From a virus (lineage: Duplodnaviria > Heunggongvirae > Uroviricota > Caudoviricetes), in IMG/VR virus record IMGVR_UViG_2693429728_000004, positions 1 to 6,037 of that record: 6,037 nt of DNA; one strand, given 5' to 3'. A program made the position numbers and the translations under genes. Of the stretch, positions 1 to 6,037 are shown in pieces (the first letter of the stretch is position 1; every line of letters starts with the position of its first letter). Under the pieces are notes generated by a model. That model saw only the letters and a list, made by a program, of their open reading frames with translations. It did not search any database and had not been told where the DNA came from.

Positions 1-234
1 GGACCGGAAGCAGAGCCGGTAATGGCAGCGGCAAAAGCCAGCCTGCAGAAGTACATCGCCAGTCAGACGCGTCTTGGTCGGGATATTCGCCGTAGCGCCA
101 TCTTTGCCGCCCTGCATGTTGAGGGTGTGCAGCGTGTGGAGCTGGCTTCTCCTCTGGCGGATGTGGTCCTGAACAAAACACAGGCGGCATCATGTACGCA
201 GTGGAGCGTAACCAACGGAGGAACGGATGAATAG
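1..234 (+). CDS. Baseplate assembly protein J-like (P2 gpJ family), C-terminal fragment; 5' end lies outside the window
   Basis: Frame 1 is open from base 1 to the TAG at 232-234. Its stop overlaps the start of the next gene (ATGAATAG), consistent with translational coupling. Position directly upstream of gpI-like and gpH-like genes matches the P2 J-I-H order. Family assignment is by context and recalled similarity, not a search. Confidence 0.55.
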   Translation, partial: GPEAEPVMAAAKASLQKYIASQTRLGRDIRRSAIFAALHVEGVQRVELASPLADVVLNKTQAASCTQWSVTNGGTDE

Positions 235-832
235 TCTGCTGCCACCGGGTTCAACACCACTGGAGCGCCGACTGGCGCAAACCTGCAGCGGGATTTCTGA
301 TCTGCAGGTGCCGCTTCGTGACTTGTGGAATCCGGCAATCTGTCCGGTCAGTTTCCTGCCTTATCTCGCCTGGGCGTTCTCTGTGGATCGCTGGGACGAG
401 GGCTGGACAGAAAGCGTCAAGCGCCAGGTGGTGAAGGATGCTTTTTATATTCATCAGCATAAAGGGACCACCAGTGCCGTGCGGCGGGTGGTGGAGCCGT
501 TCGGCTTTCTGATCCGCATTATTGAGTGGTGGCAGACCGGAGAGGCACCGGGCACGTTTCGCCTGGATATCGGCGTGCAGGACCAGGGCATCACTGAAGA
601 TACCTATCTGGAACTTGAGCGACTGATAAGCGATGCCAAACCATGTAGCCGCCACATGATCGGCATCTCCATCAATCTGCAGACCAGCGGCCCGCATTGG
701 GTGGGAGCTGCCAGCTATCTTGGCGAAGAAATCACGATTTATCCGTATATCAACGAAACAATTATTTCTGGCGGCACCGCGCATGAAGGCGGGGCGGTCC
801 ATGTTATTGACACAATGAGAGTGAATCCATGA
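227..832 (+). CDS. Phage tail protein I (P2 gpI-like)
   Basis: 201-aa ORF containing LWNP..C.....LP.LAWAFSVDRWDE and GTFRLDIGV motifs that I recall from P2 gpI. Its stop overlaps the next start (ATGA at 829-832). Correct position between J-like and H-like genes. Confidence 0.8.
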   Translation: MNSLLPPGSTPLERRLAQTCSGISDLQVPLRDLWNPAICPVSFLPYLAWAFSVDRWDEGWTESVKRQVVKDAFYIHQHKGTTSAVRRVVEPFGFLIRIIEWWQTGEAPGTFRLDIGVQDQGITEDTYLELERLISDAKPCSRHMIGISINLQTSGPHWVGAASYLGEEITIYPYINETIISGGTAHEGGAVHVIDTMRVNP

Positions 833-1974
833 GCACAAAATTTTATACCCTGCTGACGGATATTGGCGCGGCGAAACTTGCCAGCGCCGCCGCGCTCGGT
901 GTGCCGCTAAAAATTACCCATATGGCGGTGGGCGATGGCGGCGGAGTATTGCCAACGCCGGACGCAAAGCAGACGGCACTGGTAAATGAGAAACGCCGGG
1001 CTGCGCTGAATATGCTTTATATCGACCCGCAGAATAGCAGCCAGATTATTGCTGAACAGGTGATCCCTGAAAACGAGGGCGGTTGGTGGATACGTGAAGT
1101 GGGCCTGTTTGATGAGTCCGGGGCATTGATTGCCGTGGGAAACTGCCCGGAAAGCTATAAGCCGCAACTGGCTGAAGGCAGCGGGCGTACCCAGACCGTG
1201 CGCATGGTGCTGATTACCAGCAGCACGGACAATATCACCCTGAAAATCGACCCTGCTGTAGTGCTGGCAACCCGCAAGTATGTGGATGACAAGGCACTGG
1301 AGCTGAAGGTGTACGTGGATGACCTGATGGCAAAACATCTTGCCGCGCCGGACCCGCATTCACAGTATGCACCCAAAGAAAGTCCAACGTTTACCGGAAT
1401 CCCCAAAGCGCCAACGCCAGCGGCGGGGAATAATACCACGCAGCTTGCGACCACCGCATTTGTTCAGGCGGCACTGACGGCTCTTATTAATGGTGCGCCA
1501 GCCACGCTGGACACGCTGAAAGAAATAGCCGCAGCCATTAACAATGATCCGAAATTCAGTACCACCATTAACAATGCGCTGGCACTGAAAGCGCCGCTGT
1601 CGAGTCCGGCACTCACCGGAACGCCAACAGCTCCCACAGCGGCGCAGTCGGTCAACAATACACAGATTGCCACTACCGCTTTTGTGAAATCGGCAATTGC
1701 AGCAATGGTGGGTTCTGCACCTGCGGCACTGGATACACTGAACGAACTGGCAGCGGCGCTGGGGAATGATCCGAACTTTGCCACGACAATGCTGAATGCG
1801 CTGGCAGGTAAACAACCGCTGGACAATACGCTTACCAATTTGAGTGGAAAGGATGTAGCTGGTCTTCTCACATACCTTGGTTTGGGAGAAGACATACCCA
1901 CGATGGCGGTGCTCACCGTGGTAATGGATCGGGTGCCTTCGTTGACTTCAACAACGCGCACCCCGTGGTGGTAA
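829..1974 (+). CDS. Tail fibre protein, N-terminal constant region (P2 gpH-like Sc); in this orientation it is not joined to a receptor-binding cassette and ends after 27 codons of flanking sequence beyond crossover site 1
   Basis: N-terminus [18 protein letters not shown]...MAVGDGGG and the later [26 protein letters not shown] block match what I recall of P2 gpH. The ORF is 381 aa whereas P2 gpH is about 670 aa. The motif YLGLGE is encoded exactly across site 1. Confidence 0.85.
1865..1890 (+). other. Crossover site 1 for a serine invertase (gix/hix-like 26-bp imperfect palindrome), inside the Sc coding sequence
   Basis: TTCTCACATACC-TT-GGTTTGGGAGAA: 12-bp half-sites (10 of 12 symmetric) around a central TT. 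The right half GGTTTGGGAGAA(G) is identical at sites 2, 3 and 4. Resembles the gix/hix architecture as I recall it (AAACC-NN-GGTTT core). Confidence 0.7.
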
Positions 1975-2127
1975 TCCTGAGCCATAGTGGCGAACCTCCT
2001 GATTGGATTAGGCTTCGCCCTATGTTGAAGTGATTGTGCCTGACAAACAGCTAAGCGCAGTTGTACCGTTATTCACACAAAATGACGGTATTTGTCTACT
2101 TGCAGGGATAATCAAAATTATGCTGAT

Positions 2128-2694
2128 TCAGGGGGATTCATTGCTCTCATTCACCGGAAATTTTCTATAAATAGTAGAAACGCCTACATCAAAAATCAGT
2201 GCAATACGCTGTCTTGATTCTCCGGCCTCGAGTAAACGTCCAATCTGTGCCCACTGTTCGGTGGTCAACTTAGGACGGCGTCCACCTACTCTGCCTTTGG
2301 CACGAGCTGCAGCCAGCCCTGCCCTGGTACGTTCAACTATCAGTTCGCGTTCCATTTCAGCCAGGGCACCCATGACATGAAAAAAGAAACGGCCCATTGG
2401 GGTGCTGGTATCAATACTGTCAGTCAGGCTTCGGAAATTCACGCCTCGCTGACGCAACTCTTCTATCAGCGTAACAAGATGCCGCATACTGCGCCCCAAC
2501 CTGTCCAGCTTCCAGACAACCAGCGTATCTCCTGCCGATAGTGTCCTGAGCAGTTTTTTCAGCCCTGGTCTGTCGGACTTAGTGCCACTGATTTTATCCT
2601 CAAAAATCCGCTCACATCCCGCGCAGTTCAGTGCATTACGTTGCAAATCGGTGTTCTGGTCATTTGTTGATACGCGTACATAGCCAATAAGCAT
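2128..2694 (-). CDS. Serine DNA invertase, Gin/Pin/Cin/Hin family, copy 1 (apparently native C-terminus)
   Basis: N-terminus MLIGYVRVSTNDQNTDLQ with the catalytic Ser in the YVRVS motif, plus VVWKLDRLGRS and a C-terminal helix-turn-helix region (RIALIFDVGVSTIYR). Very close to E. coli e14 Pin as I recall it. Start placed at the second ATG (2692-2694) because GGGGG lies 6 nt upstream; the six-frame ORF extends to 2700. Confidence 0.93.
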   Translation of the reverse strand: MLIGYVRVSTNDQNTDLQRNALNCAGCERIFEDKISGTKSDRPGLKKLLRTLSAGDTLVVWKLDRLGRSMRHLVTLIEELRQRGVNFRSLTDSIDTSTPMGRFFFHVMGALAEMERELIVERTRAGLAAARAKGRVGGRRPKLTTEQWAQIGRLLEAGESRQRIALIFDVGVSTIYRKFPVNESNESP

Positions 2695-2776
2695 GATCAT
2701 CCCCCTGAATAAAAACCGGAGATGATGCCAGTTAGCCGTTATCTCTGCATTTTCTTAAACGTTGGTTTGGGAGAAG
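2162..2776. repeat. 615-bp direct repeat, copy A (invertase body + promoter region + crossover site)
   Basis: Both boundaries mapped by direct comparison: identity with copy B begins at 2162/3545 and ends at 2776/4159 (constant offset 1383). The encoded invertase residues are identical in both copies. Confidence 0.85.
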
Positions 2777-3243
2777 GTTCAGCATTACCTGTTGGTGCGC
2801 CTGTTCCGTGGCCTTCAGAGACACCTCCAACAGGCTGGCTGAAATGCAACGGGGCGGCTTTTTCTGCTGAAGAATACCCGGAACTGGCAAAGGCTTACCC
2901 GACAAATAAATTGCCTGATTTACGAGGTGAATTTATTCGTGGCTGGGATGATGGGCGCGGTATTGATGCAGGACGTGCTTTATTGAGCCTTCAGGCTGGG
3001 ATGCTGGAAAAGCACCGTCATATTGTTGTTGCCAATGATGGTTACGACACAAAAGATGAATGGGAACTGGCTACGATTTTCAAAAAGACATACACACAAG
3101 GACGGGGACTTGATGCCACAAATACAGGAGGGAGTCTGATCCCATCACCGACACTTCATTCACGAGGGAGTATCGGTAATACTGGCGGGAGTGAAACCCG
3201 TCCACGAAATATTGCATTTAACTTTATCGTGAGGGCTGCATAA
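2722..3243 (+). CDS. Tail fibre variable C-terminal (receptor-binding) cassette Sv1; functional only when fused to Sc at the crossover site
   Basis: Contains GAPVPWPS...P.GWLKCNGAAFSAEEYPELAKAYP...NIAFNFIVRAA, which I recognise as the signature of Mu S / P1 S / e14-type fibre tips. The leading ATG codons are probably fortuitous; coding relevance begins at the GLGE codons in site 2. Confidence 0.8.
   Translation: MMPVSRYLCIFLNVGLGEGSALPVGAPVPWPSETPPTGWLKCNGAAFSAEEYPELAKAYPTNKLPDLRGEFIRGWDDGRGIDAGRALLSLQAGMLEKHRHIVVANDGYDTKDEWELATIFKKTYTQGRGLDATNTGGSLIPSPTLHSRGSIGNTGGSETRPRNIAFNFIVRAA
2750..2775 (+). other. Crossover site 2 (gix/hix-like), about 50 bp upstream of the invertase copy 1 start and at the 5' edge of cassette Sv1
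   Basis: TTTTCTTAAACG-TT-GGTTTGGGAGAA. Right half and central TT are identical to site 1. Same codon phase as site 1 (the central TT occupies codon positions 2-3 and is followed by GLGE codons). Confidence 0.7.
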
Positions 3244-3544
3244 TGGATAACGCCGTATTAAATAGCGAGCTTATTGCCACGAAGGCGGGGAATATTACCG
3301 TCTATAACTATGATGGTGAAACTCGGGAATATATTTCCACTTCAAATGAATATCTTGCCATTGGTGTCGGTATCCCTGCATATTCCTGTTTAGATGCCCC
3401 TGGCACACATAAGGCGGGTTATGCTATCTGCCGTTCGATGGATTTAAATTCATGGGAATATGTGCCAGATCATCGCGGTGAAATCGTCTATAGCACCGAA
3501 ACAGGAGAATCGAAAGAAATCACAGCTCCGGGTGATTATCCTGA
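2762..3544. repeat. Inverted repeat, arm A (site core + Sv1 + first 100 codons of the chaperone), at least 783 bp
   Basis: Position p pairs with 8799-p on the opposite strand: 2762 pairs with 6037 (window end) and 3544 with 5255. The first mismatch is 3545 vs 5254. Confidence 0.85.
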
Positions 3545-3557
3545 TTTCTATAAATAG
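3243..3557 (+). CDS. Tail fibre assembly (chaperone) protein, truncated copy U1; identical to U' for its first 100 codons, then fused to unrelated sequence
   Basis: Residues 1-100 are identical to the 200-aa U' (4954-5556, - strand). Divergence begins at nt 3545, exactly where the 615-bp invertase repeat starts. Start overlaps the Sv1 stop (TAATG). Confidence 0.7.
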   Translation: MDNAVLNSELIATKAGNITVYNYDGETREYISTSNEYLAIGVGIPAYSCLDAPGTHKAGYAICRSMDLNSWEYVPDHRGEIVYSTETGESKEITAPGDYPDFYK

Positions 3558-4077
3558 TAGAAACGCCTACATCAAAAATCAGTGCAATACGCTGTCTTGA
3601 TTCTCCGGCCTCGAGTAAACGTCCAATCTGTGCCCACTGTTCGGTGGTCAACTTAGGACGGCGTCCACCTACTCTGCCTTTGGCACGAGCTGCAGCCAGC
3701 CCTGCCCTGGTACGTTCAACTATCAGTTCGCGTTCCATTTCAGCCAGGGCACCCATGACATGAAAAAAGAAACGGCCCATTGGGGTGCTGGTATCAATAC
3801 TGTCAGTCAGGCTTCGGAAATTCACGCCTCGCTGACGCAACTCTTCTATCAGCGTAACAAGATGCCGCATACTGCGCCCCAACCTGTCCAGCTTCCAGAC
3901 AACCAGCGTATCTCCTGCCGATAGTGTCCTGAGCAGTTTTTTCAGCCCTGGTCTGTCGGACTTAGTGCCACTGATTTTATCCTCAAAAATCCGCTCACAT
4001 CCCGCGCAGTTCAGTGCATTACGTTGCAAATCGGTGTTCTGGTCATTTGTTGATACGCGTACATAGCCAATAAGCAT
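3520..4077 (-). CDS. Serine DNA invertase, Gin/Pin/Cin/Hin family, copy 2 (C-terminal tail replaced: ...STIYRNQDNHPEL in place of ...STIYRKFPVNESNESP)
   Basis: Identical to copy 1 through the helix-turn-helix region. Its last 8 codons are read from the antisense strand of the truncated U1. Lies within direct repeat 3545-4159. Confidence 0.9.
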   Translation of the reverse strand: MLIGYVRVSTNDQNTDLQRNALNCAGCERIFEDKISGTKSDRPGLKKLLRTLSAGDTLVVWKLDRLGRSMRHLVTLIEELRQRGVNFRSLTDSIDTSTPMGRFFFHVMGALAEMERELIVERTRAGLAAARAKGRVGGRRPKLTTEQWAQIGRLLEAGESRQRIALIFDVGVSTIYRNQDNHPEL

Positions 4078-4159
4078 GATCATCCCCCTGAATAAAAACC
4101 GGAGATGATGCCAGTTAGCCGTTATCTCTGCATTTTCTTAAACGTTGGTTTGGGAGAAG
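3545..4159. repeat. 615-bp direct repeat, copy B
   Basis: See copy A. Mismatches flank the repeat at 2161 vs 3544 and at 2777 vs 4160. Confidence 0.85.
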
Positions 4160-4518
4160 CAGCGAAACGGGGTGTGGGAACAGGGGAAAATCAGATACCG
4201 GACATGGCTTCTTTTGCCAGTGGTGATGGATGGATGAAATTACCCAACGGTAAAATTCTGCAATATGGTCGAGGTGAGGCTATGCCGAAATTATCGACGC
4301 AAACAATGAGGATTACATTTCCTATCCCTTTCCCTAAAAAAGCGGACTGCGCCATTCTTACCCATTCTGGTGATGGCGGTGCGCCTTTAGGCGCTGGGCG
4401 AGGGTTCGTGATGACTGCAGAAGGCCCTACGTTAACCGGCTTTAATTCTGCTTACAGAACGTCATCAACCAGCGACACGGTATCTATGCATTACAGTTGG
4501 TGGGCTGTTGGTGAGTAA
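4105..4518 (+). CDS. Tail fibre variable C-terminal cassette Sv2, a receptor-binding tip unrelated in sequence to Sv1/Sv'
   Basis: Shares only the leader and GLGE site codons with Sv1, then diverges completely (AAKRGVGTGENQIPDMASF...). Followed 20 bp downstream by a chaperone gene, as expected for a fibre tip cassette. Confidence 0.7.
   Translation: MMPVSRYLCIFLNVGLGEAAKRGVGTGENQIPDMASFASGDGWMKLPNGKILQYGRGEAMPKLSTQTMRITFPIPFPKKADCAILTHSGDGGAPLGAGRGFVMTAEGPTLTGFNSAYRTSSTSDTVSMHYSWWAVGE
4133..4158 (+). other. Crossover site 3 (gix/hix-like), identical copy of site 2, at the 5' edge of cassette Sv2
   Basis: Same 26 bp as site 2 (offset 1383 bp, inside the direct repeat). Sequence diverges immediately after GAGAAG. 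Confidence 0.7.
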
Positions 4519-4538
4519 TTTTATTCAGGGTGATTTAT

Positions 4539-4982
4539 ATGAACGAATATGTTTATAGTGCCAAGCATAATGCTTTTTTCCCTGTGGATATGATTGATAA
4601 ATATAAATCAGTAGGATGGGATTTATCAGATGCTAAGGAGGTGAATCAAAATATTGTCAGTGAGTTTATGGCTGAACCGCCACAAGGAAAAGTCCGTATT
4701 GCCGGAGAGGATGGACTACCTACGTGGGCAGATATTCCTCCACCTACTCATGAAGAGCTTATTGAAATTACTGAATCAGAAAGACAGCTACTAATTAACC
4801 AGGCCAACGAATACATGAACAGTAAGCAATGGCCCGGTAAAGCCGCTATTGGTCGTCTGAAAGGTGATGAACTGGCGCAATATAATTTGTGGCTGGATTA
4901 TCTGGACGCACTGGAGCTGATCGATACTTCCGGTGCGCCAGATATTGAATGGCCTACGCCTCCGGCAGTTCAGGCCAGATGA
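4539..4982 (+). CDS. Tail fibre assembly (chaperone) protein U2, cognate to Sv2
   Basis: Position immediately after Sv2. Its C-terminal region (LLINQANEYMNSKQW....A..RLKGDELAQYNLWLDYLDALELIDTSGAPDIEWP) parallels the U' C-terminus (LIDTAMASISLIQLKLQAGRKLTQAETTRLNAVLDYIDAVTATDTSTAPDVIWP). Start chosen at the ATG at 4539 with AGGGTGA upstream; the ORF track begins at a GTG at 4530. Confidence 0.75.
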   Translation: MNEYVYSAKHNAFFPVDMIDKYKSVGWDLSDAKEVNQNIVSEFMAEPPQGKVRIAGEDGLPTWADIPPPTHEELIEITESERQLLINQANEYMNSKQWPGKAAIGRLKGDELAQYNLWLDYLDALELIDTSGAPDIEWPTPPAVQAR

Positions 4983-5556
4983 CATCCGGCGCTGTGCTGG
5001 TATCTGTTGCCGTCACCGCGTCAATGTAATCCAGCACAGCGTTAAGGCGGGTTGTTTCTGCCTGCGTCAGCTTCCGTCCGGCCTGTAATTTCAGTTGAAT
5101 CAGACTGATGGAGGCCATTGCAGTATCAATCAGCGACTGGCGCAGTGCTTCTGCTGCATCTACTGCTGCGCCGTGCTGTGCCTCGGTATCTGTCACCCAT
5201 TTCTCACCATTCCATTTATCGTATGGCGTTAACGGGGCGATAGTGGTTGTATTTTCAGGATAATCACCCGGAGCTGTGATTTCTTTCGATTCTCCTGTTT
5301 CGGTGCTATAGACGATTTCACCGCGATGATCTGGCACATATTCCCATGAATTTAAATCCATCGAACGGCAGATAGCATAACCCGCCTTATGTGTGCCAGG
5401 GGCATCTAAACAGGAATATGCAGGGATACCGACACCAATGGCAAGATATTCATTTGAAGTGGAAATATATTCCCGAGTTTCACCATCATAGTTATAGACG
5501 GTAATATTCCCCGCCTTCGTGGCAATAAGCTCGCTATTTAATACGGCGTTATCCAT
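4954..5556 (-). CDS. Tail fibre assembly (chaperone) protein U', full length, cognate to Sv'
   Basis: 200-aa ORF convergent with U2, with 3' ends overlapping by 29 bp. Start overlaps the stop of Sv' on the - strand. This paired, convergent layout is the one I know from the Mu G and P1 C invertible segments. Confidence 0.8.
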   Translation of the reverse strand: MDNAVLNSELIATKAGNITVYNYDGETREYISTSNEYLAIGVGIPAYSCLDAPGTHKAGYAICRSMDLNSWEYVPDHRGEIVYSTETGESKEITAPGDYPENTTTIAPLTPYDKWNGEKWVTDTEAQHGAAVDAAEALRQSLIDTAMASISLIQLKLQAGRKLTQAETTRLNAVLDYIDAVTATDTSTAPDVIWPELPEA

Positions 5557-6037
5557 TATGCAGCCCTCACGATAAAGTTAAATGCAATATTTCGTGGACG
5601 GGTTTCACTCCCGCCAGTATTACCGATACTCCCTCGTGAATGAAGTGTCGGTGATGGGATCAGACTCCCTCCTGTATTTGTGGCATCAAGTCCCCGTCCT
5701 TGTGTGTATGTCTTTTTGAAAATCGTAGCCAGTTCCCATTCATCTTTTGTGTCGTAACCATCATTGGCAACAACAATATGACGGTGCTTTTCCAGCATCC
5801 CAGCCTGAAGGCTCAATAAAGCACGTCCTGCATCAATACCGCGCCCATCATCCCAGCCACGAATAAATTCACCTCGTAAATCAGGCAATTTATTTGTCGG
5901 GTAAGCCTTTGCCAGTTCCGGGTATTCTTCAGCAGAAAAAGCCGCCCCGTTGCATTTCAGCCAGCCTGTTGGAGGTGTCTCTGAAGGCCACGGAACAGGC
6001 GCACCAACAGGTAATGCTGAACCTTCTCCCAAACCAA
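5556..6037 (-). CDS. Tail fibre variable C-terminal cassette Sv' (same protein as Sv1), in inverted orientation; 5' end and site run past the window end
   Basis: Translation is identical to Sv1 from the GLGE codons through NIAFNFIVRAA. The two 60-nt stretches 3181-3240 and 5559-5618 were checked and are exact reverse complements. Confidence 0.8.
   Translation of the reverse strand, partial: GLGEGSALPVGAPVPWPSETPPTGWLKCNGAAFSAEEYPELAKAYPTNKLPDLRGEFIRGWDDGRGIDAGRALLSLQAGMLEKHRHIVVANDGYDTKDEWELATIFKKTYTQGRGLDATNTGGSLIPSPTLHSRGSIGNTGGSETRPRNIAFNFIVRAA
6024..6037 (-). other. Crossover site 4 (gix/hix-like), inverted relative to sites 1-3, truncated by the window end
   Basis: Reverse complement of 6021-6037 is TTGGTTTGGGAGAAGGT, i.e. 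central TT plus the conserved right half. The other half-site lies beyond position 6037. Confidence 0.6.

Follow-up and report, generated by a model that had tools for sequence, protein, structure and literature searches.

We analysed a 6,037-nt stretch of DNA (positions 1 to 6,037 of the IMG/VR virus record IMGVR_UViG_2693429728_000004; hereafter the window) that contains an invertible tail-fibre locus. What it contains is a normal invertible tail-fibre module of the Gin/Cin/Pin type from a P2-like Escherichia coli prophage, and the window is probably a mis-joined or mis-oriented representation of the canonical locus, derived from a population of mixed orientation. The canonical module reads J, I, Sc-site-[SvB UB> <UA SvA]-site-invertase>-sheath>, where Sc is the constant N-terminal part of the tail-fibre gene H, SvA and SvB are fibre-tip cassettes, and UA and UB are their tail-fibre assembly chaperones. 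The invertase flips the ~1.9-kb bracketed segment, fusing Sc to either SvA (509 aa) or SvB (473 aa), with no OFF state. The window divides into three blocks, each collinear with this locus and bluntly joined to the next. Block 1 (1-1891) comprises J'-I-Sc-site; block 2 (1893-3544) comprises the reverse complement of sheath nt 93-1 and of the invertase, then site-SvA-UA'; and block 3 (3545-6037) comprises the reverse complement of most of the invertase, then site-SvB-UB> <UA <SvA-site core. The most likely cause would be an assembly mis-join or mis-orientation from a culture containing both orientations, in which case the fibre lacking a receptor-binding domain (RBD), the duplicated invertase and the 31-codon sheath stub would be non-biological states.

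Complete and draft genomes of E. coli supplied ~20 related loci with the canonical order, J, I, Sc-site-[Sv U> <U' Sv']-site-invertase>-sheath>-tube, in which the sheath has 390 aa. In each of these loci Sc was fused to one cassette; the resulting fibre measured 509 aa with a Collar tip and 464-473 aa with a Gp53-like one. The Sc-SvA junction was present in 290 of 5,426 complete E. coli genomes and the Sc-SvB junction in 305. Thus, both orientations give a complete fibre open reading frame (ORF) in relatives (509 and 473 aa), whereas in the window Sc enters antisense sheath DNA. The invertase lay outside the segment in every related locus examined, save those of E. coli AR_0013 and NZ_OZ546943.1, to which we return below.

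The fibre ORF of the window (829-1974, + strand) encodes 381 aa, ending ...LTYLGLGE followed by 27 residues. Its codons 1-354 are Sc (829..1890, +), which ends with YLGLGE inside crossover site 1. The rest is a junk tail (1891..1974, +) of 27 codons and a stop, running antisense through the 5' end of the sheath gene. An earlier, sequence-only reading of the window had held that the fibre gene lacks a receptor-binding end, and this was borne out: the sole Pfam domain in the 381-aa product is Phage_tail_fib at the N-terminus (residues 1-150), and the distal domains Collar or Gp53-like_C were detected by Pfam only once Sc was fused to a cassette. The same reading had taken the 27-codon tail for the 3' flank of invertase copy 1; the length was right, but the identity was not, because this stretch runs antisense to codons 1-31 of the sheath gene FI. 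It was also correct that no cassette copy in the window is fused to Sc (SvA at 2777-3243, SvB at 4160-4518 and SvA at 5556-6022 on the - strand), although what it counted as three cassettes are two types, SvA being present twice. Its length of 381 aa stands as well, but the ~670-aa P2 gpH with which it was compared is not the proper comparator; the 464-528-aa fibres of related prophages are. The 381-aa, RBD-less ORF exists only because block 2 follows block 1 in the wrong orientation.

Residues 1-354 of Sc showed 94-97% identity to fibres rebuilt from relatives, and up to 100% to database homologues. The best 120 homologues of the 381-aa product were 392-667 aa long, the shortest being flagged partial. 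For the closest of them (97-100% identical) the alignment ended at query residue 354 (93% of the query), and none of the 120 aligned across the 27-aa tail. The sequence-only reading had allowed that Sc homologues might end naturally at this position; none of the best 120 matches ended near residues 354-381. On the opposite strand, a spurious 173-aa ORF (window 1464-1985, -) fuses the 31 sheath codons to Sc antisense, and a gene caller could report it.

We flipped the window in silico over 1879-6035, between the cores of sites 1 and 4. As the sequence-only reading had predicted, this inversion joined Sc to an Sv cassette without interruption and placed both invertase copies downstream on the + strand. 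The single Sc-SvA ORF was 509 aa long, not the ~540 aa that had been predicted, and aligned throughout, at 96% identity, with the fibre of related locus L014, itself 509 aa long. With SvB in place of SvA, the fibre would have 473 aa and show 96% identity to that of L017. Residues 356-442 of the rebuilt fibre resemble the receptor-binding tip of T4 gp37 (PDB 2XGF), a similarity that lies wholly in the cassette. The first 4369 nt of the flipped construct formed one ungapped alignment with the canonical locus L015; the remainder consisted of one 1383-bp repeat, the 3' end of the invertase and sheath nt 1-93.

The crossover sites have the same architecture as in relatives: 26 bp, made of two 12-bp half-sites and a 2-bp core. 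Site 1 (1865..1890, +) carries the outer half l1 TTCTCACATACC, a TT core at 1877-1878 and the inner half GGTTTGGGAGAA. Sites 2 (2750..2775, +; core TT 2762-2763) and 3 (4133..4158, +; core TT 4145-4146) both carry the outer half l2, TTTTCTTAAACG. Only the inner half and core of site 4 (6023..6037, -) are present, the window stopping exactly at the core dinucleotide. Sites 3 and 4 are inverted and flank SvB-UB/UA-SvA. The 15-mer TTGGTTTGGGAGAAG, which comprises core, inner half-site and a G, occurs four times, at 1877, 2762, 4145 and 6023(-), with 0 copies expected by chance. Tables of sites for such invertible segments have been published (PMC4134206). The window thus holds four inner halves, one l1 (Sc side) and two l2 (invertase side). 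Because this tally does not close, an extra copy of Sc or a third invertase would be needed beyond 6037.

The sheath gene FI is represented by its first 31 codons only (1893..1985, -), with the start at 1985 and a cut after nt 93; the invertase-sheath intergenic region follows (1986..2127, -). Window 1893-1985 matched L011 2294-2386, where a 390-aa sheath gene begins, at 100% identity, and the stub was collinear with intact FI genes to nt 93, where it ends. Junction 1 lies at 1891/1892-1893. Base 1892 (A) comes from neither partner, and sheath homology begins at 1893; the whole inner half-site is intact, followed by a G, the filler A and then sheath DNA in reverse, which places the join 13-14 nt outside the core (1877-1878). 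Gin-type serine invertases exchange strands only at the 2-bp core. With the join where it is, junction 1 cannot have been produced by such an enzyme. At junction 2 (3544/3545), UA nt 302 is joined to invertase codon ~177.

Several candidate origins for these junctions were rejected. A simple two-break inversion is ruled out by the presence of the 15-mer at both ends of the flipped part. A crossover at a quasi-site with weak site likeness at sheath nt 74-99 (GCACCGCCATCG TG GGTATGGTCTGC) fails in that the window's junction is outside the core, and the clean product of a quasi-site at sheath nt ~86 was found in 0 of 5,426 complete E. coli genomes. A de Bruijn mis-join through a shared k-mer finds no common word at either junction. 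With homopolymer lengths ignored, both junctions match their partners slightly better, although only by matches of the 'AG' or 'AAAT' type. Nor are the block ends mosaic boundaries between chaperone alleles: UA nt 302 falls within the most conserved stretch, and no boundary lies there. We also observed two short sequence features near junction 1. A 7-nt direct repeat, ACATACC, flanks the 15-mer (window 1870-1898). In addition, sheath nt 88-93 (GGTATG) have the same sequence as the 6 nt that open the reverse complement of the Sc-side half-site. This likeness may be accidental, or it may hint that the invertase binds a pseudo half-site there.

Neither junction (1891/1893 or 3544/3545) was present in any of the 5,426 complete E. 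coli genomes, and neither junction DNA had a match in GTDB representatives, JGI metagenomes or IMG/VR. None of the three proteins that the junctions create turned up in a collection of 153 billion gene positions, where the canonical proteins are abundant, and exact look-ups of the 381-aa, 187-aa, 190-aa and 104-aa products were all negative. The phage and plasmid collections held no second copy of the whole window.

Blocks 2 and 3 carry invertase-site-SvA and invertase-site-SvB, which are the two orientations of the segment, and their common parts are 100% identical. The final bases of block 1 are GGGAGAAG, and those of the window are ...CCAAACCAA; both ends coincide with the last bases common to the alternative paths of a mixed-orientation population. 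Contigs of two independent public drafts stop at the same places: a scaffold of L007 (6256-9930) breaks exactly after the block 1 end sequence ('GGGAGAAG|NNN'), and contigs of L021 (9520-13380; GCA_000458955.1, scaffold KE700796.1) end exactly at the crossover core ('CCAAACCAA|NNN'). The L021 scaffold places two mirror-image copies of the G segment side by side, 1893/1893 identical, with 75 N between them. The L007 break and the duplicate segments of L021 are clear assembly artefacts at the same locus. Such segments flip constantly in clonal cultures of strains with P2-like prophages (PMC4272514), and merged contigs of alternative orientation have been described to give 'artefactual duplications in phage regions' (PMC4134206).

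Several points weigh against a mis-joined assembly, beginning with the fact that we infer the mis-join. There are zero Ns at the junctions; the block ends at sheath nt 93, UA nt 302 and invertase codon ~177 match no identifiable branch point of an assembly graph; and a k-mer common to both sides, which could explain a de Bruijn mis-join, is absent at either junction. In addition, a real inversion splits the fibre and sheath genes in two complete genomes. Such damage to a prophage is not impossible, because these two genomes do carry it.

The two genomes are E. coli AR_0013 (NZ_CP032204.1, L001 3829-8690) and NZ_OZ546943.1, in which a genuine invertase-made inversion has joined the Sc site to a quasi-site in the sheath gene (sheath nt ~960, ATTATCG AG GGTATCC). 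Both junctions are hybrid sites with cores converted to TT/AA, and the split fibre and sheath genes are annotated as pseudogenes; only 2 of the 5,426 complete genomes have this arrangement. Inversions by Cin/Gin-type invertases at quasi-sites (secondary crossover sites) have been described (Iida & Hiestand-Nauer 1986, 1987, cited in PMC4134206). The AR_0013 locus resembles the window in its order, with Sc followed by the reversed 5' part of the sheath gene, the reversed invertase and the G segment. In contrast, its exchange lies exactly at the core (AA/TT hybrid sites), while the sheath DNA of the window begins 13-14 nt outside the core, beside an intact inner half-site.

These genomes lend some weight to the main rival explanation, which we consider possible but clearly not the leading one: that the window records a real P2-like prophage scrambled by two illegitimate (non-site-specific) joins on top of normal G inversions, with fibre and sheath genes broken and the prophage dead. 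One join would connect the outer edge of the Sc site to inverted sheath nt 93, and the other would connect UA nt 302 to invertase codon ~177, producing the 1383-bp duplication. The ORFs away from the junctions are all intact and the sequence quality is otherwise high. If blocks 2 and 3 are flipped, what results is a canonical prophage with a single 1383-bp duplication, for which one template switch could suffice. The ACATACC repeat around the 15-mer and the half-site mimicry of sheath nt 88-93 also speak for it. Yet a real scramble needs at least two independent events with zero microhomology within 1.7 kb, together with the duplicated 15-mer and a further copy of Sc or of the invertase beyond the window, and the duplicates show no divergence. 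Neither junction was in any collection searched, and the clean quasi-site product at sheath nt ~86 was absent too. Furthermore, junction 1 and the end of the window sit at positions that are relevant to an assembler and to no known enzyme. Were this explanation true, the option in the sequence-only reading that the prophage is fibre-defective in this orientation would be correct, and the prophage would have a dead sheath gene too. That option holds only if the window faithfully copies a real DNA molecule, which we doubt.

The sequence-only reading had offered as its other option the OFF state of a host-range switch, and this was not borne out: relatives have a complete fibre in both orientations, the junction is off the core, and the sheath gene is reduced to 31 codons. 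In its fullest form, sites 1 and 4 would bound a 4.1-kb invertible super-segment that includes the invertase, as in the Hin system, and programmed inversion would toggle fibre and sheath together. Sites 1 and 4 are indeed inverted, with identical core and inner half, and the in-silico flip restores a perfect 509-aa fibre. However, with the sheath junction outside the core, such an inversion did not produce the present state, and in the flipped form the sheath gene still ends at codon 31, followed by a half-site. The arrangement was found in 0 of 5,426 complete genomes, compared with ~595 that are canonical, and the invertase is outside the segment in every related locus examined except AR_0013 and NZ_OZ546943.1. 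We consider a programmed OFF state very unlikely. It is likewise highly improbable that the arrangement is both real and reversible, with inversion of the 4.1-kb invertase-containing super-segment (sites 1 and 4) uncoupling the tip and decapitating the sheath gene; if true, a reversible super-segment would switch tail production ON and OFF at the level of the prophage, atop the normal host-range switch. A reading of the 381-aa product as a short fibre, complete and functional, is almost certainly wrong, with nothing but the open ORF to commend it: the last 27 residues are antisense sheath, the product has no distal domain, the best 120 homologues are all at least 392 aa with none aligned across the tail, and the similarity to the T4 gp37 tip resides wholly in the cassette.

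The invertase duplicated in the window is a serine DNA invertase. Copy 1 is full length (2128..2694, -; 188 aa from the second Met), with an N-terminal catalytic domain (Pfam Resolvase, E 2e-53) and a C-terminal helix-turn-helix (HTH_7, E 6e-15). It aligned with Mu Gin (PDB 3UJ3) over residues 1-183 (E 4e-92). The exact copy 1 protein occurred in 813 blocks of the collection of 153 billion gene positions, and the invertase DNA was 97-99.8% identical to canonical loci. Inversion systems of this type carry a Fis-dependent recombinational enhancer within the 5' coding part of the invertase gene. Copy 2 (3545..4077, -; ORF 3520-4083) has identical DNA but lacks the final 11 codons, and 8 antisense-UA codons stand in their place. 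The altered end of its product (window 3520-4083, -) reads ...TIYRNQDNHPEL, and the HTH_7 match is shortened to 40/45 profile positions. The two copies lie in an exact 615-nt direct repeat (2162-2776 = 3545-4159) that covers invertase and site.

The two mirror-image cassettes each have their own chaperone, SvA (Collar) with UA and SvB (Gp53-like_C) with UB. SvA copy 1 (2777..3243, +), a Collar-domain fibre tip, is followed by only the first 302 nt of UA (3243..3544, +), whose 104-aa product had no Pfam match. The SvB cassette (4160..4518, +), a Gp53-like_C fibre tip, is followed by UB (4530..4982, +; Pfam Caudo_TAP, E 3e-29). On the opposite strand lie the full-length UA (4954..5556, -; 200 aa; Pfam Caudo_TAP), the exact protein of which occurred in 146 blocks of the same collection, and SvA copy 2 (5556..6022, -). 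Both SvA copies are contained in a perfect inverted repeat of 783 nt with 100% identity (2762-3544 / 5255-6037). The silent cassettes gain an upstream ATG in the invertase-site spacer (MMPVSRYLCIFLNVGLGE...; window 2722-2776 and 4105-4159), creating free-standing ORFs of 173 aa and 137 aa that RefSeq labels 'tail fiber protein' or 'gp53-like domain-containing protein'. These cassette ORFs are probably not independent genes. The invertible segment SvA-UA / UB-SvB (window 2762-3544 and 4145-5254) was, over its entire extent, 99.7-100% identical to the segment of Mu-like prophages (L013 and L022 9520-11412), which have a Mu Gp45/46/48 baseplate context and outer half-sites of another sequence (CTCTCGAAAACC). 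P2-like and Mu-like E. coli prophages thus have these tip cassettes in common.

At its start, the window carries the 3' end of the baseplate gene J (1..234, +), which runs off the window start and is collinear with baseplate_J genes of relatives, and then the gene for tail protein I (227..832, +; 201 aa; Pfam Tail_P2_I, E 3e-54). J', I and the N-terminus of H were 96-98% identical to P2-like prophages. At the other end of the canonical module, the sheath gene is present as the 31 reversed codons, and the tube gene (FII) is outside the window.

A tail-fibre switch of the Gin/Cin/Pin family within a P2-like tail module is already known from E. coli prophages. The Mu G segment with Gin, like the P1 C segment with Cin and the e14 P segment with Pin, has a Gin-related invertase, 26-bp sites and an Sc that ends inside a site. 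These systems also share two mirror-image Sv and U pairs, with the invertase just outside the segment as in the window's relatives. Unlike in Mu or P1, the host module of the window is P2-like (J-I-H...FI), and unlike in all three systems, the window as written leaves Sc without a cassette and has two invertase copies, situated between sites. The prophages Phi1, Phi2 and Phi4 of EC958 and the P2-like prophages of enteropathogenic E. coli (EPEC) E2348/69 have the same kind of locus (PMC4134206, PMC4272514), and the EC958 Phi2 site TCCTCAATTACCTT GGTTTAGGAGAA is near-identical to the sites of the window (PMC4134206, PMC4272514). Both orientations of these prophage segments occur in one culture, and alternative contigs risk artefactual duplication (PMC4134206, PMC4272514). 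The reported EC958 and E2348/69 loci are clean alternative orientations, whereas the window has two extra blunt junctions. The Salmonella Hin/H segment resembles the window in having the invertase gene between inverted sites, and in an ON/OFF outcome. In contrast to the window, where the placement is unique and is not a core product, Hin has a conserved native placement and crossover at the cores. The sole departure of the window from the Gin/Cin/Pin family is its two blunt junctions.

If the arrangement were real, the window would simply add another dead P2-like prophage, with collateral damage around an active invertase as in AR_0013, and of modest interest. The main value of the locus is as a caution: prophage regions with invertible tail-fibre genes are known to yield scrambled or duplicated assemblies, and such a record can suggest an 'RBD-less fibre', a second invertase copy and a decapitated sheath gene without underlying biology.

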